NCBI GenBank assembly: GCA_963774955.1
Contig: CAVZGV010000006.1
Coordinates: forward strand, 159,224-223,223
DNA length: 64,000 nt
Direction of reading: 5' to 3'
Source: Candidatus Falkowbacteria bacterium
GTDB taxonomy: Bacteria > Patescibacteriota > Patescibacteriia > CAIXNZ01
Shown: piece by piece, positions 13,981 to 62,583 of the stretch
Numbering within the stretch: the first letter of the stretch is position 1
How the letters are laid out: the number at the start of each line of letters is the position of its first letter
The notes under the pieces: generated by a model
Told to the model about the DNA's origin: nothing
Databases searched by the model: none
What the model saw: only the letters and a program-made list of their open reading frames with translations
Made by a program: the position numbers and the translations under genes

Positions 13981-14055
13981 AATGAGTACGGATCTTAGAT
14001 TTTGGATTTTAGATTATCAATTATAACTAAAATCTAGAACCTAGAATCTAAAACC

Positions 14056-14799
14056 TTATTTTAATAATTCCCACAGCCTTAAAAATATAATCTTTTGAGT
14101 TACATAAATCATTTTATTTTCAATAATCACGCCAACCGGCTGAGCCTTGGCATCGCGGGAAATAAAAGCGCACTTATCAGCATAAATAATAATATAAGTT
14201 TTTTGTTGGCTATCTTCGGCATTTAAATACTTGCGTTCATCCATACCGCGCAGTTCACCCTGTTTAGCAAAGGATATTGTCCTGACCTTAATTTTATTTT
14301 TTATGCGTTTATCAGAAAAATCTTCAAAGCCCTGATACAGATCTTTAGTAATGCCGGCGGCTGAATAAACAAAGTATTCTTTCTCTTCAGCCAGGATCAT
14401 GGAATCAAGCACGTCATCCAAAATCTGATGCACACCTTTTTTACCTTCGTAAAATTTTACAATCGGCATATTGCCGCCTTTATCCTGCAGAGCTTTTAAT
14501 TCAGGAATCAAATCCCCGAAATTAGCCTTAACCTTTTGCAGTTCTTTTTCCTTGTTTTCCACCAGCTTAACTAAAGTGACCGGATCTTCAGCCACAAATT
14601 TCTGCTTGGTATCCTGATGGAAATAAGTAACCAAGCCTTTTTCCTGCAAACTTTTCAAGAGGTCATAGGCTGTGCCCCTATTCACATCAGCCAGTTCAGC
14701 CAAAGAGCGCACCGAAATCGCGCCATATTCCAAAAGCGTCAAATAAACTTTAATTTCCTTGTCAGTAAGTCCTAATTTTTTAAATAATGTTAAATCCAT
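14056..14799 (-). CDS. TrmB-family transcriptional regulator
   Basis: N-terminal HTH LGLTDKEIKVYLTLLEYGAISVRSLAELADVNRGTAYDLLKSLQEKGLV is typical of TrmB regulators. A C-terminal sensor domain follows. Confidence 0.75.
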   Translation of the reverse strand: MDLTLFKKLGLTDKEIKVYLTLLEYGAISVRSLAELADVNRGTAYDLLKSLQEKGLVTYFHQDTKQKFVAEDPVTLVKLVENKEKELQKVKANFGDLIPELKALQDKGGNMPIVKFYEGKKGVHQILDDVLDSMILAEEKEYFVYSAAGITKDLYQGFEDFSDKRIKNKIKVRTISFAKQGELRGMDERKYLNAEDSQQKTYIIIYADKCAFISRDAKAQPVGVIIENKMIYVTQKIIFLRLWELLK

Positions 14800-15524
14800 A
14801 CGAATGAAAATAGTAATTAGTTATTAATAATTGGTAATTTATTTAAATCTCTAAATGATACAACGATAATTGGGTATTTTTTCGATTTTCTTTTTTATAT
14901 TTTATTTTTTAAAATCAATCTAAGAATTATTTTTCCAACTAAGCCTTAGATTGATCCTGAAGCACACGCTTCAGGATGTGAGATGTATTACCCGCTTAGT
15001 AATGAATACCAAACTAAGTGATTAAATTTTGAAACTCGGGGACAACTATACCCACCCCTACATTTCGTAACTTTCCCTCCGCCGTCCACTTGGTTAATAT
15101 TATTCGGGTAACGCTCTGTTTTTATCCCTCATCATAGATTTTTTCTACGATGAAAATTGTTGAAGGTCGAAGGAGATCCAGGCGGAAAGCGGCAGAGCCA
15201 TTTAGTTAATATTCGTGTGAATATTAGACTAAATGAACTCTGCGCGCCTCCCAACCCGGAATCTCCCTCGACCTTTTTTTAATGTACTACACGCCCTCCA
15301 TTTATCACTATTCTACTTTCATCATATACCCGCCCAAAATATTTGTCAAGTATTTTTCTACAAGTTTAAATTAGAATAGTGTATTTTACTTAATTTTAGC
15401 TTAATTATTATATATATTTTGTCAACATATTTTACTATAAAAAACAAAGTTATCCACAACGTACTAGAACTCGCAACGCTCGTTCAGTACGTTGCAGGCA
15501 GCAACAAAAAAGCGCAAACGACCT

Positions 15525-16610
15525 TTGTCTTTTGTCATTTCGGGTAAATGGTACCCAAACTGGTTGGTGAAAAGACAAAATTTCTGTTAAGGTTAGATTA
15601 AAATTGATACTTAATATTAAACTGGTTCAATATTATGAAAAAAAACTTGTCCAGATTGCTCCTCTAATAATGTAATTTTTTATGGCCAAAATGATTGCGG
15701 ACGGCAAAGATTCAAGTGCGGGAAGTGCAATCGACTGTTTGTTTTCCGCAATGCAAAGAATAAATTGAACCGCCAACTTAAATGGTTTAAATTATGGATA
15801 GCCGAAGGATATTCAGTCAGGCAAATTTCGGGAATTAGCCACCACAGCAGGAAAACAATTAAGGGAATAATCAGTTATTGGCTCGCAAAATTACCGAGCC
15901 CTTTAAACGTACAAACCGGAATAAAATATCTGCTTTTTGATGGTACATATTTCCACCGCATGAATTGCTTAATGCTGGCAATGAATAATGCCAATGGCCA
16001 AATCATCACAAATAGGTATTTAAGGCGTGAAAATTACTTTGCCGCCCTTGAGCTGTTCAAGGAGCTGTCAGATAAAGGAATCAAGCCTACAGCCATTACA
16101 ATTGACGGTAATACTAGCGTAATTAGAGCCTTAAAGGACGCATGGCCGAATATCGTAATACAGCGCTGTATCGTTCATATCCAGAGGCAGGGATTATCTT
16201 GGTTAAGAATGCGTCCTAAACTGGAGCCATCGATACAATTACGCAAGATATTACTGGCGGTAACAAACATTAACAATTATCCGGAAAAACATAAATTTAT
16301 TTCAGATTTTCATAAGTGGGAAAGAAAATTCGGCAAAGCGGTTTCAAGACTCGACTGTAACCACAAAGTCTTTAGTGATTTGCAAAGAACTAGAAGCTTA
16401 GTAATTCATGCCTTGCCCGACATGTTCCATTATTTAGATAATCCGAATATCGCCAAATCAACGAATAAACTTGAAGGATATTTTTCTCGTTTAAAAAGAT
16501 TGTATCGCCAGCATTCAGGATTAAGCAAAGATAACAGAAACAATTACATTAGCTGGTATATTCATTTCAAAAATCATTAATTCACCAACCAGTTTGGACC
16601 CCTTATACCC
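15525..16610 (+). mobile_element. IS1595-family-like insertion sequence, copy 1 (ends partly eroded)
   Basis: 1086 bp identical (100%) to 20301..21386. Terminal inverted repeats ggtacccaaactggttggtgaa / ttcaccaaccagtttggacccc. Encodes a zinc-ribbon DDE transposase. Confidence 0.8.
15765..16580 (+). CDS. DDE transposase, IS1595/ISXO2-like (C-terminal TNKLEGYFSRLKR ... NNYISWYIHFKN signature)
   Basis: 271-aa ORF. The same frame upstream (no ATG) encodes a zinc ribbon, CPDC-x15-CGRQRFKCGKC. An ATG at 15635 sits in another frame immediately 5' of an A8 run (15638..15645), so the full protein probably needs a +1 shift or transcriptional slippage. Confidence 0.75.
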   Translation: MNRQLKWFKLWIAEGYSVRQISGISHHSRKTIKGIISYWLAKLPSPLNVQTGIKYLLFDGTYFHRMNCLMLAMNNANGQIITNRYLRRENYFAALELFKELSDKGIKPTAITIDGNTSVIRALKDAWPNIVIQRCIVHIQRQGLSWLRMRPKLEPSIQLRKILLAVTNINNYPEKHKFISDFHKWERKFGKAVSRLDCNHKVFSDLQRTRSLVIHALPDMFHYLDNPNIAKSTNKLEGYFSRLKRLYRQHSGLSKDNRNNYISWYIHFKNH

Positions 16611-16775
16611 ATTTCGACCGGAGTGGAGAAATCCCTCAATAATCTAAGGGATGCCTCCATTTCAGTCGGTATGACAAATGGCATTTACGCTTCCCTATTT
16701 CCAATCCCTAATTCCTCAATCTTGACTTTACCTCATTTTTCTGCTAAACTTCCCTATTACCGATAAGGAGGCAAC

Positions 16776-17390
16776 ATGGATTTAAGGCCCATTCTTAAAC
16801 CCTATCTAAAAGGCGAACTAGTCACCATTTGGACAATTTGCCCGGTAACATCCTGGGAACATTTTCAAAAAGTCGGCCTGATCAAGGCTGATGGCCGCCG
16901 CGCCATGAAGAGTTACCGCGAAGCCTATCATTGGCTGATCGAGCAAATGGTAAAAAAAATACCAGGTCATAAACCTGGTCAATTCCCCACCTGGGCCTGG
17001 TATTATCCCCGCCCCGACCTACGCCACATAGCGCATTTAGCCACAGGGACCAAAGGGATATTGCTAACCTGCAAAGTCCCCGGCCAAAGAATGCTGCTGT
17101 CTGACTTTGGCGCCTGGCACCATGTGCTTAACCAATGGTATTTGCCGCTGACCAAAGAAGAAGATGATGCAGCCGACGAGGAAGAACGAGGCTGGTACAA
17201 ACTGCCAAATATCAGCCAAAAATACTGGCAGTTGCGCCTGGAAAAAAACATGCCCAGCTGGCAGCGTATCTTCGATCTGCAGGCTCTCAATAAATCAAAA
17301 CTGCTTGGTCCGGTTGAACAGATCCAAGCGACTGTTTCTTACATCAGACTGGACGAGGTGGTAAAAGTTACACCTTTTACTGCCCGCTAA
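16776..17390 (+). CDS. Hypothetical protein (GC-elevated, no recognised domain)
   Basis: 204 aa, about 50% GC against an AT-rich flank. Followed by an intrinsic terminator. Confidence 0.5.
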   Translation: MDLRPILKPYLKGELVTIWTICPVTSWEHFQKVGLIKADGRRAMKSYREAYHWLIEQMVKKIPGHKPGQFPTWAWYYPRPDLRHIAHLATGTKGILLTCKVPGQRMLLSDFGAWHHVLNQWYLPLTKEEDDAADEEERGWYKLPNISQKYWQLRLEKNMPSWQRIFDLQALNKSKLLGPVEQIQATVSYIRLDEVVKVTPFTAR

Positions 17391-17413
17391 GAACCCTCCG
17401 GGGTTCTTTTTTA
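17391..17413. terminator. Rho-independent terminator (gaaccctccggggttc plus T6), likely bidirectional
   Basis: Perfect 6-bp GC stem with a T-run. Lies between two convergent genes. Confidence 0.7.
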
Positions 17414-17447
17414 TATCAAAAAAGAGGACGATGCCCTCTTTATAATG

Positions 17448-18404
17448 CTAGTTTAAAAGCTCTATAGCCTGCCAGTTAAATTTGAATAACCCTTTCCGAC
17501 CAAATGGCTTAATAATCCCATAGTAGCTTGGGATATTTCTAAAATTCAATTTCTGAAAAATACGCCGCATATTCATTCCAGATAATTTCCTGTCATAAGA
17601 ATAAATAATACTCCCTAAAAAATGCAATCCTTGCTCTGCCTTGATAATTATATCATTTTTGAGGTTTATATTCAGGTTAAGACGAGTATTTAAAAAATTT
17701 ACAGCCAAATTCCTAAGTTCTCCTGCCCTCTCTTTACTCCCAGCCAAGATTATAAAATCGTCTCCGTATCTTAAATAAGCCATTGGCTTTAATATATTTT
17801 TAACATAGCGGTCAAATTCATTCAAATAAATATTGGCGAAAATCTGGCTGGTCAAATTGCCGATGGGCATTCCCCCGTTATTGCCCAAATCATAACTTAT
17901 AATCACCTTGGCAATTAAATTAAAACTGAACTTATCTTTAATTCTTAATTTAATAATATCTAATAAAATTTCCTGGCCCACAGAATCAAAGAACTTCTTA
18001 ATGTCAGAACGCCAGACATAACTATCAGGATATTGGCGTAAAAATGATTGTGTTCTTTTAATGGCCTTATGCAATCCTTTGCCTTTTCGGCATGACCAAG
18101 CATCATAAATAAAAGTTTTATCGTAAATCTCCACCAGATAGTCATAAATCAGCCGATGAACAATTTTATCGCGTAACGGCGCGACCGAAATCGTCCGTTT
18201 CTTATTATCAGTCACCTCAAAATATCTGTAATTGCCCGGTTGATAATTGTCAGTTATCAGCTCTTCATGAAGCTTAAACAATTCCGGCTCCAGATTATAT
18301 TTAAACTCATCAAATTCATAAGTCCGCTTTTTGCCTTTTTGGTATTCGCCAAAACAGCGCCATAAATTTGCTACACTGATGTCCATGGAACCATATCCGG
18401 TCAT
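17448..18404 (-). CDS. Diversity-generating retroelement reverse transcriptase
   Basis: RT motifs 1-7 are present (RTISVAPLRDKIVHRLIY, DIKKFFDSV, YLRYGDDFIIL, GLHFLGSII). Motif 4 reads PIGNLTSQIFANIYL, the [I/L/V]GxxxSQ form typical of DGR RTs rather than the QGxxxSP of group II intron or retron RTs. Adjacent Avd, TR and VRs support the call. Confidence 0.85.
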   Translation of the reverse strand: MTGYGSMDISVANLWRCFGEYQKGKKRTYEFDEFKYNLEPELFKLHEELITDNYQPGNYRYFEVTDNKKRTISVAPLRDKIVHRLIYDYLVEIYDKTFIYDAWSCRKGKGLHKAIKRTQSFLRQYPDSYVWRSDIKKFFDSVGQEILLDIIKLRIKDKFSFNLIAKVIISYDLGNNGGMPIGNLTSQIFANIYLNEFDRYVKNILKPMAYLRYGDDFIILAGSKERAGELRNLAVNFLNTRLNLNINLKNDIIIKAEQGLHFLGSIIYSYDRKLSGMNMRRIFQKLNFRNIPSYYGIIKPFGRKGLFKFNWQAIELLN

Positions 18405-18729
18405 AAATTTAATTTACGAGGTTTATAAGCAGATTATAGACCTTGACAGCCGGCTGACTAAAAGGTGGCGCTATTCTCTAGGCGTGAGTCTGGAAAACAG
18501 CATTTTATCATGTCTGGAACTCTTGATCATGGCCAAGAACGCGCCCAAGCCGCTCAAAGCGCCCTATCTGTACAAGGCAGACGCGCAATTGGAAATAATC
18601 CGCCTCAAACTGCGATTGCTTCTGGAGCTGAAACTGGCGAATGAAACTAAACTTTTCCAATTGCAGAGCCAATTGCAGGAAATAGGGCGCCAAGTCGGCG
18701 GCTGGCTGAAATCAGCGCAGAATAAATAA
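18379..18729 (+). CDS. avd: DGR accessory variability determinant (Avd; four-helix-bundle, bAvd-like)
   Basis: About 117 aa. Its C-terminal half (YKADAQLEIIRLKLRLLLELK ... EIGRQVGGWLKS) resembles my recollection of Bordetella phage bAvd (YAADAGLAMLRFWLRFL ... EVGRILGSWIARV). Divergent from the RT, with start codons overlapping at CCATGG. Confidence 0.65.
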   Translation: MSMEPYPVINLIYEVYKQIIDLDSRLTKRWRYSLGVSLENSILSCLELLIMAKNAPKPLKAPYLYKADAQLEIIRLKLRLLLELKLANETKLFQLQSQLQEIGRQVGGWLKSAQNK

Positions 18730-18842
18730 AACTTTACCGAGGCCCGAACCGAATTATTGTCATTATGATTGTCTGGATTATTCCAATTCAAGTTGAACTG
18801 ATGATTATTCCGATTCCAATTGCCAAACGGCACAGCGCCCTT
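18727..18842 (-). repeat. DGR template repeat (TR)
   Basis: 113-bp block colinear with the 3' ends of the three target genes. In the sense (minus) orientation it is Asn/AAY-codon rich (NWNRNNHQFNLNWNNPDNHNDNN). All 41 mismatches to VR2/VR3 fall on TR adenines. Confidence 0.85.
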
Positions 18843-18963
18843 GATTGATTTAGCTTGTCCATATACCTTAGATCGTCGCAACGATCCTCGGTCCATTGGC
18901 TTGGATTTTTCATCCACAGTAGCCCGGGAGGGCGAAGGTGGATAAGCTAAACTCAAACGTAAA

Positions 18964-18993
18964 GTTATATTTATTATTTTGCGCAAACGACAA
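18964..18993 (-). promoter_or_regulatory. Candidate sigma70-like promoter for the TR (and RT) transcript (TTGTCG-18-TATAAC on the minus strand), overlapped by a TTTGCGCAAA palindrome
   Basis: Hexamers read on the minus strand. A 10-bp perfect palindrome at 18978..18987 lies in the spacer. A second copy is at 19028..19037. Confidence 0.3.
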
Positions 18994-19143
18994 TGCAGTC
19001 TTAAAAACTGATCATTGCGATTTTTGATTTGCGCAAATTTACGGTAGCTGAATCTAAGTTCAGCATGTATTCACCGTATTACTGATTTAAAAATACAAAG
19101 ACAAAATATAAAAGCCTCAAAACCAAAACCCAAAGTCCAAATC

Positions 19144-20283
19144 TTAAAACTTTACCGAGGCCCGAACCGAACCACCGTCACTATGAGAGCCTGGATAACG
19201 CCAATCCAAGCGGAACTGACGATTAAACCGATTCCAACGGCCAAACGGCACAGCGCCTTTCCCTTTAAAATATGCCCCAGCATTCCAGCAGCCTTTGCCC
19301 TGTCCGTCCCAATCATCTATCATTTGATCATGATGTTGCAGCTGCTGTATTAAATATATCAGCTGCGCCTCGGGCGTGGTAAATTGTTCATCAGCGTACT
19401 GCTCCTCAGTCTGAATCTTGGCCAGATATTGTTCAGGGCTTTGGCCTGCGTCAAACTGTTGCCTGCCTTCTATGTCTTTTCCCTTGCCTTTTTCCGGTAA
19501 ATCCGGCAGGTCTTCAATAAACATCACTTGCCAACCTACGCTCTCCGAGCTTCGGTTGGCAAGCCAGCCGGATAAAAGTTCTGACTTAGTCTGACCTCCA
19601 TGGTTATCTTTATCAAACTTTTTAACTCCATAAACCAGATTACCGTTGATATCAGCATCTTTGTATTCATCATTTACAAAAACCGGCTGATTCTCATCTA
19701 GTTCCAACTTTGTGCCGTCTGTAGCCAGCAATTTGCCCTCTTTATGCTTTTTGATTATTAACTTCCCAGCTTTCTCTGCAATTTCACTTAGCTTCATGCC
19801 AATCGGCACCAAAAGCAACTGGGTAAAGCCCTGCTCTCTTTTTTTATCCAGCATTTCGGCTTTGGCTTCCATTCGATCCTTTATCTCCTGATAGCTCGGA
19901 ATCAGCTGTTCTTGCCCGAGAATATCAATCATGCCCCATTGGCCGTTTTTAAACTCCTGCAAGATGCCAACTTGTTTGAGTGTTTCCACTTGTTGGTCAT
20001 ATTGTTCCTGCAAATTAAATTCCTGTTCAAGATTTTCGCGTTTTAACTTACGTCCGTGAATTGTTTCCATTTTTGCCTTTACCTGCTGCAGTAAATTTAA
20101 AGCAGCCGACAAATTGCCGGCTTTTTCTGCATCGACGGCTTTGGTTACCAGTTCATTAATTTCCTGGCGCTGCTCATCAGTCATTTCCATTTCCTTAGCC
20201 TGCAACAAACTGCGTCTGGCCATTTCCATGACCGGCGCTTCGGGAGTTTGTAGTTTTTCCATTCCTTTTTTCATAAATTTCAT
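19144..20283 (-). CDS. DGR variable (target) protein, paralog 2; C-type-lectin-like C-terminal VR
   Basis: 379 aa. C-terminus ...GCWNAGAYFKGKGAVPFGRWNRFNRQFRLDWRYPGSHSDGGSVRASVKF. VR differs from TR only at TR adenines. Confidence 0.85.
   Translation of the reverse strand: MKFMKKGMEKLQTPEAPVMEMARRSLLQAKEMEMTDEQRQEINELVTKAVDAEKAGNLSAALNLLQQVKAKMETIHGRKLKRENLEQEFNLQEQYDQQVETLKQVGILQEFKNGQWGMIDILGQEQLIPSYQEIKDRMEAKAEMLDKKREQGFTQLLLVPIGMKLSEIAEKAGKLIIKKHKEGKLLATDGTKLELDENQPVFVNDEYKDADINGNLVYGVKKFDKDNHGGQTKSELLSGWLANRSSESVGWQVMFIEDLPDLPEKGKGKDIEGRQQFDAGQSPEQYLAKIQTEEQYADEQFTTPEAQLIYLIQQLQHHDQMIDDWDGQGKGCWNAGAYFKGKGAVPFGRWNRFNRQFRLDWRYPGSHSDGGSVRASVKF
19145..19257 (-). repeat. DGR variable repeat VR2
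   Basis: 19 of 19 substitutions versus TR sit at TR adenine positions. The 3' 27 bp (ggttcgggcctcggtaaagtttta, IMH-like) is identical to TR. Confidence 0.85.
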
Positions 20284-20284
20284 T

Positions 20285-21415
20285 TGGGCGAAAACGCCCG
20301 TTGTCTTTTGTCATTTCGGGTAAATGGTACCCAAACTGGTTGGTGAAAAGACAAAATTTCTGTTAAGGTTAGATTAAAATTGATACTTAATATTAAACTG
20401 GTTCAATATTATGAAAAAAAACTTGTCCAGATTGCTCCTCTAATAATGTAATTTTTTATGGCCAAAATGATTGCGGACGGCAAAGATTCAAGTGCGGGAA
20501 GTGCAATCGACTGTTTGTTTTCCGCAATGCAAAGAATAAATTGAACCGCCAACTTAAATGGTTTAAATTATGGATAGCCGAAGGATATTCAGTCAGGCAA
20601 ATTTCGGGAATTAGCCACCACAGCAGGAAAACAATTAAGGGAATAATCAGTTATTGGCTCGCAAAATTACCGAGCCCTTTAAACGTACAAACCGGAATAA
20701 AATATCTGCTTTTTGATGGTACATATTTCCACCGCATGAATTGCTTAATGCTGGCAATGAATAATGCCAATGGCCAAATCATCACAAATAGGTATTTAAG
20801 GCGTGAAAATTACTTTGCCGCCCTTGAGCTGTTCAAGGAGCTGTCAGATAAAGGAATCAAGCCTACAGCCATTACAATTGACGGTAATACTAGCGTAATT
20901 AGAGCCTTAAAGGACGCATGGCCGAATATCGTAATACAGCGCTGTATCGTTCATATCCAGAGGCAGGGATTATCTTGGTTAAGAATGCGTCCTAAACTGG
21001 AGCCATCGATACAATTACGCAAGATATTACTGGCGGTAACAAACATTAACAATTATCCGGAAAAACATAAATTTATTTCAGATTTTCATAAGTGGGAAAG
21101 AAAATTCGGCAAAGCGGTTTCAAGACTCGACTGTAACCACAAAGTCTTTAGTGATTTGCAAAGAACTAGAAGCTTAGTAATTCATGCCTTGCCCGACATG
21201 TTCCATTATTTAGATAATCCGAATATCGCCAAATCAACGAATAAACTTGAAGGATATTTTTCTCGTTTAAAAAGATTGTATCGCCAGCATTCAGGATTAA
21301 GCAAAGATAACAGAAACAATTACATTAGCTGGTATATTCATTTCAAAAATCATTAATTCACCAACCAGTTTGGACCCCTTATACCCGGTATGACAACGGG
21401 CGTTTTCGCCCTCGC
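20285..21415 (+). mobile_element. IS1595-family-like insertion sequence, copy 2 (complete, with 20-bp outer inverted repeats gggcgaaaacgcccgttgtc / gacaacgggcgttttcgccc)
   Basis: Core identical to copy 1. Starts 2 bp upstream of the target-2 start codon. Confidence 0.8.
20541..21356 (+). CDS. DDE transposase, IS1595/ISXO2-like (identical to 15765..16580)
   Basis: 100% nucleotide identity to copy 1, with the same upstream zinc-ribbon frame and A8 run (20414..20421). Confidence 0.75.
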   Translation: MNRQLKWFKLWIAEGYSVRQISGISHHSRKTIKGIISYWLAKLPSPLNVQTGIKYLLFDGTYFHRMNCLMLAMNNANGQIITNRYLRRENYFAALELFKELSDKGIKPTAITIDGNTSVIRALKDAWPNIVIQRCIVHIQRQGLSWLRMRPKLEPSIQLRKILLAVTNINNYPEKHKFISDFHKWERKFGKAVSRLDCNHKVFSDLQRTRSLVIHALPDMFHYLDNPNIAKSTNKLEGYFSRLKRLYRQHSGLSKDNRNNYISWYIHFKNH

Positions 21416-21496
21416 AAGTATTCACCGTATTATTAATTTTTAAAAAATCAAATCCGAAAACAATAAAACAATATCTCAAGTCCCAAACTCCAAATC

Positions 21497-22642
21497 TTAA
21501 AACTTTACCGAGGCCCGAACCGAAGCAAGGTCATAAGGAGCGTCTGGAGAACGCCAAGCCAAGTAGAACTGATGAAGATCCCGAACCCAAAGGCCAAACG
21601 GCACAGCGCCTTGCCCTTTAAAATATGCCCCAGCATTCCAGCAGCCTTTGCCCTGTCCGTCCCAATCATCTATCATTTGATCATGATGTTGCAGCTGCTG
21701 TATTAAATATATCAGCTGCGCCTCGGGCGTGGTAAATTGTTCATCAGCGTACTGCTCCTCAGTCTGAATCTTGGCCAGATATTGTTCAGGGCTTTGGCCT
21801 GCGTCAAACTGTTGCCTGCCTTCTATGTCTTTTCCCTTGCCTTTTTCCGGTAAATCCGGCAGGTCTTCAATAAACATGACTTGCCAACCTACGCTCTCCG
21901 AGCTTCGGTTGGCAAGCCAGCCGGATAAAAGTTCTGACTTAGTCTGACCTCCATGGTTATCTTTATCAAACTTTTTAACTCCATACACCAGATCACCATT
22001 TATATCAGCGTCTTTATATATTTCATCCACAAAAACAGGTTGTGGCTTGCCATTTTCATCTAATTTGATTTCCAGCTTGGCTCCGTCTGTTCCCAGCAAT
22101 TTGCCCTCTTTATGCTTTTTGATTATTAACTTCCCAGCTTTCTCTGCAATTTCACTTAGCTTCATGCCAATCGGCACCAAAAGCAACTGGGTAAAGCCCT
22201 GCTCTCTTTTTTTATCCAGCATTTCGGCCTTGGCTTCCATTCGTTTTTTAATCTCTTCATAGCTGGGTATTGGCTGTTCATTGCCTAAAATATCTACAAT
22301 TCCCCAGTTACCGTTTTTGAATTCCTGCAGAATACCTACTTCTTTTAAAGTCTGAAATTGTTCTTCGTATTGTTCCTTTAAATTTAATTCTTGTTCCAAA
22401 TTTTCTTTGGCTACATTCGCTTTTTGCAACTTTTCCATTTTTTTCTTGACCTGATTTAAAAGTTTTATAGCTCCGGCCAAATCTTTGGCATTTTCCTTGG
22501 CAACAGCCTGATCAATCAGTTCCATTATTTCCGCTTTTTGTTCAGCAGTCATTGCCATTTCCTTAACCGAACCCAAAACCTGCCTGGCCATGGCCAGAGC
22601 CGATGCTTCGGAATTTTTTACTTGTTCCATTTTTCTCGACAT
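21497..22642 (-). CDS. DGR variable (target) protein, paralog 3; C-type-lectin-like C-terminal VR
   Basis: 381 aa. C-terminus ...GCWNAGAYFKGQGAVPFGLWVRDLHQFYLAWRSPDAPYDLASVRASVKF. Lies directly downstream of mraY. Confidence 0.85.
   Translation of the reverse strand: MSRKMEQVKNSEASALAMARQVLGSVKEMAMTAEQKAEIMELIDQAVAKENAKDLAGAIKLLNQVKKKMEKLQKANVAKENLEQELNLKEQYEEQFQTLKEVGILQEFKNGNWGIVDILGNEQPIPSYEEIKKRMEAKAEMLDKKREQGFTQLLLVPIGMKLSEIAEKAGKLIIKKHKEGKLLGTDGAKLEIKLDENGKPQPVFVDEIYKDADINGDLVYGVKKFDKDNHGGQTKSELLSGWLANRSSESVGWQVMFIEDLPDLPEKGKGKDIEGRQQFDAGQSPEQYLAKIQTEEQYADEQFTTPEAQLIYLIQQLQHHDQMIDDWDGQGKGCWNAGAYFKGQGAVPFGLWVRDLHQFYLAWRSPDAPYDLASVRASVKF
21498..21610 (-). repeat. DGR variable repeat VR3
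   Basis: 22 of 22 substitutions versus TR sit at TR adenine positions. Confidence 0.85.
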
Positions 22643-27404: not shown

Positions 27405-27489
27405 ATTTTTTAGATTATAGGTTTTAGATTTTAGGTTTTAGTTCTTCAACCACAAGCCAAAATCTAAAATCCAAGATCTAAAATCTTAT

Positions 27490-61141: not shown

Positions 61142-61191
61142 GCAGGTCGCCTTTTTATATACTGCCGATAAATTTTTGATTTTATAGTTTA

Positions 61192-62583
61192 TTATTTTGC
61201 CTGACCGTTTTCTACCCAAATCACATTTGAACAGCTGAAATTCTGTGCCTGATCCAGGCTGCAAACCCGATAATACACATTGCCCGGACTGGTAATATTT
61301 ACTTCTTTATCCAAATAAGACTCATTGCCCTTGGTTGTCTTGGTCAGATATCCGGCAGTCGGAAATAATAAATTAGCATCAGTGATTGATTTCAATATTC
61401 TATATTCCTTAAAATCTTCTTCATTATTAGCTGTCCAGCTCAAGCTGACTCCACTGACTGAAATTATTGCCTGAAGCTGAGGCACTGCTGGCGGTGTAGA
61501 ATCTTTAGCTGCGACCGAAATATCAAGCACATTGCCACAACTGACTTTTGCACTGGTTTTAACCACACAAACACGATAATAATACTGCTTCCCCGCCCCG
61601 ACTGTATCATCGGTAAAAGATACCAAGTCCTTATTAGCTGAAGATTTGATAACAAGATCATCCGGATATTTCAGATCGCTATGTTGTTCTGAACGGACTA
61701 TTTTATACAGACTAAAATTATCCGCAACATAAGGTGACCAGCTCAATTTCACGCTACCAACCTTTTGTTCGGCCTTAAGCGCCAAGCTGTCACTAATTAT
61801 TTCGTAGTTCGGCTCCTGTTCCGGCAAAACTTCAACCAAACCCTTATCCAGATCAAAATTCCATTTATACCAGGTTTCCTTGGCCAAGATCTGCTGTTCA
61901 AAAGTATCTATTTTGAACAGATCTTTTTTAGCGGCCTTAAAGTCTATCAGTGCTTTTTCATTAGCATCCAAACGACTGGACATTAAAATATTATCCTTAT
62001 CCATAATATCGACTTTCACCTGATTTTCCATAACTAAAATAGCCAGATATTCTGTTTCGTCATTTACAATAATTTCAAATTTTGTGCCTAAAGCGGTAAT
62101 TTTCGCCTGTAAAACAACAACCTGATACTGTCCAGCTGTGGTTATATTATTGTATATTCTACCTCTTAATAACTTTATGACCACATTATTTTCATCCAGC
62201 TTATCTACGATTATTTCAGTATTTGCAGCCAAACGAATCTTAGTCCCGTCATCGAGACCCAAAACCGCGAGACTGTTTTCACCGGTTTTTATTTTGTCGC
62301 CCTGATGTAAAACTGCTTTATCAATGGCTTTCTCATAGCCTTTAACCGCGATATCTACCATAACATCGCCTTGCAAAAGGCTAATTTCGCCGCTGATTAT
62401 TTTTGTTTCTATAATCTCTGCATTATTTAAATTATCCTCCAGAACCGGCTTGTTTAATTCAATTTTAGAAAAATAATTAATATAGAACCAATAAATCAAA
62501 GCGCCGACAATCATAAAAATGAGGACTACAATTACCCATTGGAAAGGATTGCTTTTTCTTTTATAATAATACATCATAGACAA
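61192..62583 (-). CDS. Membrane-anchored protein with fibronectin-III-like repeats (hypothetical)
   Basis: N-terminal TM. Two blocks of the form SWSP...Y(K/R)I(V/L)(R/K)S...YYYRVC, reminiscent of Fn3. Confidence 0.45.
   Translation of the reverse strand: MSMMYYYKRKSNPFQWVIVVLIFMIVGALIYWFYINYFSKIELNKPVLEDNLNNAEIIETKIISGEISLLQGDVMVDIAVKGYEKAIDKAVLHQGDKIKTGENSLAVLGLDDGTKIRLAANTEIIVDKLDENNVVIKLLRGRIYNNITTAGQYQVVVLQAKITALGTKFEIIVNDETEYLAILVMENQVKVDIMDKDNILMSSRLDANEKALIDFKAAKKDLFKIDTFEQQILAKETWYKWNFDLDKGLVEVLPEQEPNYEIISDSLALKAEQKVGSVKLSWSPYVADNFSLYKIVRSEQHSDLKYPDDLVIKSSANKDLVSFTDDTVGAGKQYYYRVCVVKTSAKVSCGNVLDISVAAKDSTPPAVPQLQAIISVSGVSLSWTANNEEDFKEYRILKSITDANLLFPTAGYLTKTTKGNESYLDKEVNITSPGNVYYRVCSLDQAQNFSCSNVIWVENGQAK

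Follow-up and report, generated by a model that had tools for sequence, protein, structure and literature searches.

When a diversity-generating retroelement (DGR) stands between two identical insertion sequences (IS) in the same orientation, did the pair bring it there as the cargo of a composite transposon, or did two IS copies arrive separately and come to enclose it? The question is raised by a 64,000-nt stretch of the genome of a Candidatus Falkowbacteria bacterium, a member of the candidate phyla radiation (CPR) (GenBank assembly GCA_963774955.1, contig CAVZGV010000006.1, positions 159,224 to 223,223 of the forward strand), which we call the window. A preliminary description had placed a composite-transposon-like unit at 15525-21415, in which two identical IS copies of about 1.09 kb, in the same orientation, flank a hypothetical gene, a reverse transcriptase (RT) gene, avd, a template repeat (TR), and one target gene. 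This layout is confirmed here, with DUF3841 as the hypothetical gene and 1,086 nt as the length of the identity. The start of the span also holds; its end does not, as the exact repeat stops at 21386 and the flanking palindrome at 21411. For the origin of the layout we favor, with a probability of about 0.7, two separate insertions of the IS, each into a palindrome of its own, which make IS-DGR-IS a “pseudo-composite” by target-site choice.

The repeat pair itself is sharply defined. In a base-by-base comparison at an offset of 4,776, positions 15525-16610 (copy 1) and 20301-21386 (copy 2), both on the + strand and so in direct orientation, are 100% identical over a single unbroken run of 1,086 nt, with 3,690 nt of cargo between them. 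Each repeat holds a 1,069-bp IS core, GGGTA...TACCC, at 15542-16610 in copy 1 and 20318-21386 in copy 2, with the left end GGGTAAATGG at 15542 and 20318 and the right end CCTTATACCC at 16610 and 21386; the same 17-nt flank, TTGTCTTTTGTCATTTC, precedes the core in both. The DNA of related IS copies was obtained by a pattern scan of metagenomes and by exact-protein look-ups. All 11 full-length copies on metagenomic contigs (81-94% identity) align exactly to core positions 1-1069, and their flanks diverge beyond these ends; partial copies have the same core boundaries. The extra 17 identical nt to the left of both window copies lie outside the core that the other copies have in common. Within the 64-kb window, the inverted-repeat core of the IS occurs only at the four ends of the two copies, with 0 chance matches expected. 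Beyond the 1,086-nt run, the copies differ at 5 of the adjoining 15 nt on the left; on the right, a 57-nt indel falls exactly at the core end, where in copy 1 an additional 57 nt (16611-16667) separate the core end from GGTATGACAA, which in copy 2 abuts the core. Recent transposition, as first proposed, is a plausible source of the perfect identity; gene conversion or assembly consensus over the repeat would look alike.

The flanks carry most of the argument. Copy 1 lies in a palindrome, PE1, whose left arm (15510-15541) consists of an outer arm, TTGTC, and ATTTC (15537-15541) abutting the IS, and whose remainder (16611-16692) consists of a second ATTTC (16611-16615), an inner hairpin that reaches to 16667, GGTATGACAA at 16668-16677, and the other outer arm. 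The whole reads AAGCGCAAACGACCT-TTGTCTT-TTGTC-ATTTC, core, ATTTC-GACCGG...hairpin...CAGTC-GGTAT-GACAA-ATGGCATTTACGCTT. Copy 1 has, then, its own 5-bp direct repeat, ATTTC, and when the core and one ATTTC are removed, PE1 becomes a single long imperfect hairpin of ~110 nt (folding z = -4.35). Copy 2 lies in a second palindrome, PE2, with a left arm (20286-20317) made up of GGGCGAAAACGCCCGTTGTC and TTTTGTCATTTC and a right arm (21387-21411), GGTATGACAACGGGCGTTTTCGCCC, which follows directly on the conserved motif GGTGAATACTTGC on the 3′ side of target 2. Its layout is GGGCGAAAACGCCCG-TTGTCTT-TTGTC-ATTTC, core, GGTAT-GACAA-CGGGCGTTTTCGCCC. The outermost 20 nt on each side of copy 2 are a perfect inverted repeat (20/20), and removal of the core leaves a 20-bp hairpin (z = -9.3). 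Over their outer 15 nt the PE2 arms pair mutually at 15/15 positions (20/20 when TTGTC is included), compared with 9-10/15 when they are paired with the arms of PE1.

Each IS is thus seated within its own palindrome, which argues that there were two separate insertions, that inner and outer flanks belong together, so that the unit did not arrive as one piece, and that wrong assembly joins across either IS are unlikely. Of the features of a composite transposon, two copies of the same IS flanking a cargo are present; the key one, a duplication around the whole unit and not around each IS, is absent. No direct repeat brackets the whole 5.9-kb unit, the left flank of copy 1 ending in ...TTGTCATTTC and the right flank of copy 2 beginning with GGTATGACAACGGG..., and a direct reading of the sequence gave no 8-9-bp target duplication at either IS or around the whole unit. 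The proposed search for target-site duplications therefore yielded the 5-bp ATTTC at copy 1 and none at copy 2 or around the unit, and the lack of a bracketing repeat, the ATTTC repeat that belongs to copy 1, and the pairing of flanks within each copy speak against a composite-transposon-like unit. Known composite transposons, such as Tn9 with IS1 or ISApl1-mcr-1-ISApl1, share with this locus two identical direct IS copies around a cargo and intact outer ends. They differ from it in that here there is no unit-wide target-site duplication, each IS has an insertion signature and a palindromic site of its own, the cargo boundary cuts a functional DGR, and no second occurrence of the unit was seen.

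What kind of IS is this? Its transposase combines an N-terminal four-Cys zinc ribbon with a DDE domain, and Pfam Transposase_mut (PF00872, Mutator/IS256) matches with 32.5 bits against a gathering score of 21. The best-ranking NCBIfam models are IS1249 (E=2.6e-46, 158 bits, cutoff 300) and the IS256 Zn-binding variant, IS256_Zn_var (E=2.7e-38, 132 bits, cutoff 150), both of them below their curated cutoffs; the IS256 model itself scores 53 against a cutoff of 150. The element is a zinc-ribbon IS of the Mutator/IS256 superfamily, near the IS1249 and Zn-variant groups. The label “IS1595-like” in the preliminary description has to be given up, since NCBIfam IS1595 (NF033547) reaches E=0.004 and 16.9 bits, far under its cutoff of 75 and over the C-terminal 40 aa only, and Pfam DDE_Tnp_IS1595 has no match in the transposase. 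A protein search with the transposase returned more than 1000 relatives, the few named ones being called “transposase” and assigned to an unclassified bacterium or to the Patescibacteria group. A scan of genome contigs with the transposase gave a sole match, 35% identical, in Bacteroidales, and a scan of viral contigs with the IS end found nothing.

The transposase genes, at 15635-16580 and 20411-21356 on the + strand, begin in an unusual way. In copy 1, an ATG at 15635 is followed directly by a run of eight A residues (15638-15645), and the 313-codon frame with the zinc ribbon and DDE domain (15639-16580) is +1 relative to this ATG, with a TGA just upstream in the transposase's own frame; copy 2 has the same arrangement (20411-20421). 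It is kept in all relatives examined (L006, L010-L020, and L024-L033; the L numbers are our own labels for contigs), whose proteins are 55%-94% identical at the amino acid level. As the ATG-A8 arrangement is identical in every one of them, the out-of-frame start is a feature of the family, and not a defect of the window copies, and expression probably depends on slippage; its conservation suggests programmed transcriptional slippage or frameshifting directly after the start codon. With the IS256 family and its IS1249 group or “IS256 Zn-binding variant” (NF033544, NF048019), the element has several traits in common: its one gene encodes a DDE transposase of the Mutator type whose N-terminus is a four-Cys zinc ribbon, and its terminal inverted repeats, ~40 nt long, are imperfect. 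It differs from the group in being shorter (1.07-1.09 kb), in scoring under the curated cutoffs, and in having its ATG out of frame across the conserved A8 run. Target duplications in the IS256 family are 8-9 bp long, whereas here an apparent duplication of 5 bp is seen, which reads ATTTC at copy 1 and, among others, ATTGC or AGAAT in relatives.

Why should the IS have inserted at these two places? Beside the core, related copies always have a pentamer of the ATTNC type or the complement of one, with TGTC beyond the pentamer on one side and a hairpin arm (GAGCG... or GACCGG...) on the other. Unoccupied units of the form TGTCATTGC-GAGCG...GCAATC (TGTC-ATTGC-GAGCG...GCAATC) are frequent in the same contigs, either alone or in tandem, and also with alternating orientation. 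L010-L017 and L021 show insertion at a fixed position of a palindromic unit, together with unoccupied units. On L021, one unoccupied unit is found at the contig's end, ~630 nt downstream from the RT gene of an 82%-identical relative, the closest one of the DGR that could be retrieved. Direct repeats of the pentamer (ATTGC, AGAAT, GAAAT, GGAAT, GCAAT) appear where left and right flanks are reliable or can be matched; an IS species that is 55% identical follows the same scheme, with left and right flank pentamers that match up (GAAAT, GCAAT, GGAAT), albeit on different, possibly chimeric contigs. As a side observation, related IS copies also stand in tandem or tail-to-tail with 1-2 hairpin units (48-91 nt) between them (L013 1-90, L019 1-220, L024 2283-2400); these could be adjacent insertions into repeat arrays, circle or dimer junctions, or assembly loops.

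From these observations we infer the following course of events. A Mutator/IS256-superfamily IS with a core of 1,069 bp would have inserted twice near the chromosomal DGR of this CPR bacterium, once into PE1, downstream of DUF3841 and the RT gene, and once into PE2, in the spacer that separates targets 1 and 2. The IS would recognize a TGTC-ATTNC-G motif in hairpin repeats that resemble repetitive extragenic palindromic (REP) sequences, and would duplicate the pentamer. Two such hairpins would flank the DGR core, and two IS copies would now stand around it because the target hairpins lie on either side. Given such a choice of target site, the IS-DGR-IS order would be a by-product, a pseudo-composite, and not a co-transposed unit. 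REP-targeting is documented for IS elements of five families, including IS256 (ISRm5) (Tobes & Pareja 2006, PMC1525189). ISPsy8, ISRm22, ISPpu9/10, and ISRm5, the last a member of the IS256 family, likewise insert at a fixed position of a palindrome with a short direct repeat, and among them too some copies lack perfect repeats (PMC1525189). The present case differs in its CPR host, in a 5-bp duplication at TGTC-ATTNC-G, and in that the window shows occupied hairpins only, so that targeting is inferred from related contigs.

Several observations weigh against this reading and should be set beside it. The first concerns copy 2, which has no 5-bp direct repeat (ATTTC on the left, GGTAT on the right) and lacks the 57-nt inner hairpin of copy 1; it is no simple insertion under the rule that copy 1 follows, and a later deletion of the hairpin or some other mechanism must be assumed. 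The simplest idea is that the inner hairpin, and the pentamer repeat with it, was deleted after insertion. An IS-mediated inversion or flank exchange was considered as the cause and rejected, for homologous exchange keeps the flank type and the flanks of copy 2 form a perfect palindrome. Second, the outer arms of PE1 pair with each other at only 11/15 positions. Third, the two copies agree in the 17 nt left of the core and in the 10 nt of GGTATGACAA right of it but not in their outer arms, and the identical inner arms could be part of the mobile unit. Fourth, neither fuzzy matching nor blastn-short found an unoccupied PE-like hairpin elsewhere in the 64-kb window, and the case for PE as an independent target repeat in this genome would come from the related contigs only. 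Nor was an empty site seen among the sequences that could be retrieved: the flank of L006 is homologous to window positions 61188-62367, and no hairpin repeat occurs at the corresponding place in the window. Finally, some short-read metagenomic contigs pair IS flanks inconsistently, as is expected across a 1-kb repeat; contigs that cross the IS are probably often chimeric, which weakens the duplications deduced from them.

Could the perfect identity have another cause? Two older, independent insertions may have been made identical by gene conversion or by an assembler that filled both copies with one consensus, with no recent transposition at all. We consider this unlikely, though it is the likeliest of the alternatives. 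The identity stops abruptly, from 0 differences in 1,086 nt to 5/15 on the left and a 57-nt indel on the right; but transposition, too, leaves exactly such sharp limits at the IS ends. Targets 1 and 2, on either side of copy 2, contain 100%-identical blocks, and conversion or repeat collapse has therefore been active at this locus. Public short-read metagenome contigs, as said, join IS flanks inconsistently; against wrong joins in the window speaks the fact that the flanks of both copies pair as palindromes.

It is doubtful, too, that the palindromic arms belong to the element itself, either as its variable termini or as inverted duplications made upon insertion, in which case the element would be ~1.13 kb long and would make no classical duplication. 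PE-like sequence in the window does occur only beside the IS. In L003, 27/31 nt of the left extension match that of copy 2 (87% identity), the same divergence as in the core, and copy 2, L010, and L013 all show an extended inverted repeat of the form TGTCATTNC-core-GNNATGACA. However, cores that are 94-97% identical carry unrelated extensions (L006, L002, and L007 compared with the window), unoccupied units are common in the related contigs, and the outer arms of the two window copies differ in spite of their identical cores. Two insertions into hairpins that were there beforehand remain our preferred account.

The DGR that the IS copies enclose is complete in its core parts: an RT with an SQ motif, Avd, and pairs of TR and variable repeat (VR) that differ at TR adenines. 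The DGR-type RT gene (17448-18404, - strand) encodes IGNLTSQ and YGDD motifs. The avd gene (bAvd/DivGenRetAVD; ~18385-18729, + strand) lies between TR and RT, antisense to the latter, and TR (18727-18842) has its sense on the - strand. Three target genes, all on the - strand, go with it: target 1 (19144-20283, VR1 at 19145-19260) inside the bracket; target 2 (21497-22642, VR2 at 21498-21613) outside it; and a third paralogue (25-1140, VR3 at 26-141), remote from the DGR core. VR1 and VR2 differ from TR almost exclusively at TR adenines (19/20 and 23/24 mismatches, respectively). VR3 has 36 mismatches, 13 of them at non-A positions, including positions in its 3′ end, and the third target, 17 kb from TR, is probably decayed or orphaned. 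The DUF3841 gene (16776-17390, + strand; PF12952, E=1e-24) is convergent with the RT gene, with convergent terminator-like hairpins between the two at 17389-17441; because relatives carry different genes downstream of RT, DUF3841 is not a component of the DGR.

The same DGR is found in relatives without any IS. The order target-TR-avd (antisense)-RT recurs in L008 (a Parcubacteria metagenome-assembled genome), L009, L021, L022, and L023, and these IS-free loci, with RTs that are 72-82% identical, are collinear with window positions 19678-17470. The comparison with related genomes that the preliminary description had called for thus shows relatives of the RT (72-82% identity) with a DGR core and no IS. 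The DGR is larger and older than the IS bracket. The antisense placement of avd is evident in L008 (876-1175), L009, and L021 (895-1194), and in relatives with this placement Avd is visibly more conserved than RT (79-82% identical); RNA from the spacer between TR and RT would be antisense to avd. Also of note for annotation is a motif, GGTGAATACWTGC, ~75-90 nt downstream of each VR and followed by a short hairpin (19040-19075; 21397-21430; L021 ~575-610; L022; L023), the stem of which varies by locus with pairing kept (TGAAC/ATTCA, TGACC/GGTTA, TAACC/GGTTA). At target 2, the PE2 arm GGGCGAAAACGCCC takes the position of this hairpin.

Did the IS arrangement also give rise to the duplicated targets, as had been suggested? 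Targets 1 and 2 are only 56-74% identical over their first ~400 nt, that is, in the 5′ third, and have 100%-identical blocks in the 3′ part (19250-19640 and 21603-21993, ~390 nt; 19733-19850 and 22101-22218, ~120 nt), with flanks that are unrelated upstream and ~64% identical downstream. Identical blocks within otherwise diverged genes suggest that gene conversion has acted between the paralogues or that the assembly has collapsed a repeat. The data fit old paralogues with converted 3′ parts, and not a duplication made by the IS or contemporaneous with its identical copies. The 5′ divergence, a third paralogue 17 kb away, and tandem target paralogues in the IS-free L008 all speak against the suggestion.

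What remains of the composite transposon, in which both IS copies and the cargo would have been mobilized through the outer ends and inserted as one 5.9-kb unit? It has in its favor that the copies are direct and identical with intact outer inverted repeats, that the transposase frame is uninterrupted save for the frameshift common to all relatives, that DGRs are known to hitchhike with transposons (PMC3521204), and that synteny with relatives stops right after RT; we nevertheless hold it to be highly improbable, given that no direct repeat surrounds the unit and copy 1 has an ATTTC duplication of its own, that the two flanks of each copy form a matched palindrome in which inner flanks belong with outer, that the bracket splits a functional DGR whose target 2 uses the same TR from outside, that target-TR-avd-RT runs in the same order as in IS-free relatives right through the position of the inner end, and that the composition of the cargo is not distinct. 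The idea of the bracket as a foreign island was dropped on this last ground, base composition inside it being like that of the surroundings. DGRs beside transposons, and IS insertions in DGR loci, have been described before (Schillinger et al. 2012, PMC3521204), and in common with those DGRs this one is adjacent to transposase genes. In contrast to them, no DGR component is inactivated by the IS copies here, nor is there any demonstrable movement of the DGR through them.

Two other features of the window may interest those who annotate such genomes. Just upstream of copy 1, 14800-15510 is a 700-nt stretch without a reading frame of at least 60 aa, in which a long-range pairing (GGTCGAAGGAGATCC ... 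GGAATCTCCCTCGACC) precedes a T-run near 15157-15280. A structured RNA that has escaped annotation may lie here; Rfam gave no match at gathering scores across the window and nothing credible in 14800-15510. At 13991-14056 and 27419-27485, 13.4 kb apart, are two mutually inverted intergenic stretches, composed of TCTAAAATC/GATTTTAGA-like units, whose arms pair over 25-28 nt (86-92% complementary). After the stop codons of the target genes comes similar sequence, rich in TTTGGA/TTTTGG; rather than the ends of an element, these stretches are probably a 3′-flank motif that is common in this genome.

For those who work on mobile elements, the locus is a caution: an identical IS pair around a cassette mimics a composite transposon, and it is the flanks that reveal two separate insertions into hairpin repeats. 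The side results, of modest value, are of more interest to specialists than the IS bracket. They are an IS group in CPR bacteria, of the IS256 superfamily and apparently undescribed, that targets hairpins; a conserved frameshift at the start codon and A8 run; and a DGR lineage with an antisense avd.

For the bacterium, the nearest consequence may concern target 1. Copy 2, with PE2, almost touches target 1, at a distance of 2 nt to its annotated ATG (20283) and of 11 nt to the likelier start (20274), and it separates target 1 from target 2. Judged from this position, copy 2 may affect the expression of target 1; promoter-like sites directed outward from copy 2 into target 1 (24, compared with 18.7 ± 4.2 in shuffled sequence) are not above expectation.

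Homologous recombination between direct repeats can delete or duplicate the DNA between them, and with 1.09 kb of perfect homology in direct orientation, the IS pair could plausibly undergo either event in a RecA-dependent way. Recombination between the two copies would delete, or release as a circle, 4,776 bp that comprise one IS, DUF3841, RT, avd, TR, and target 1. That such a 4.8-kb circle, with the DGR core, DUF3841, and one IS, serves as a translocatable unit, to be lost or to re-integrate into other hairpins or into CPR genomes with the same IS, is a long shot; if true, it would be a route of DGR transfer in bacteria without obvious phages or plasmids. Were the 4,776-bp module deleted, targets 2 and 3 would be left without a diversifier, and an IS pair that excises the DGR core in this way would be a simple, irreversible off-switch for hypermutation.

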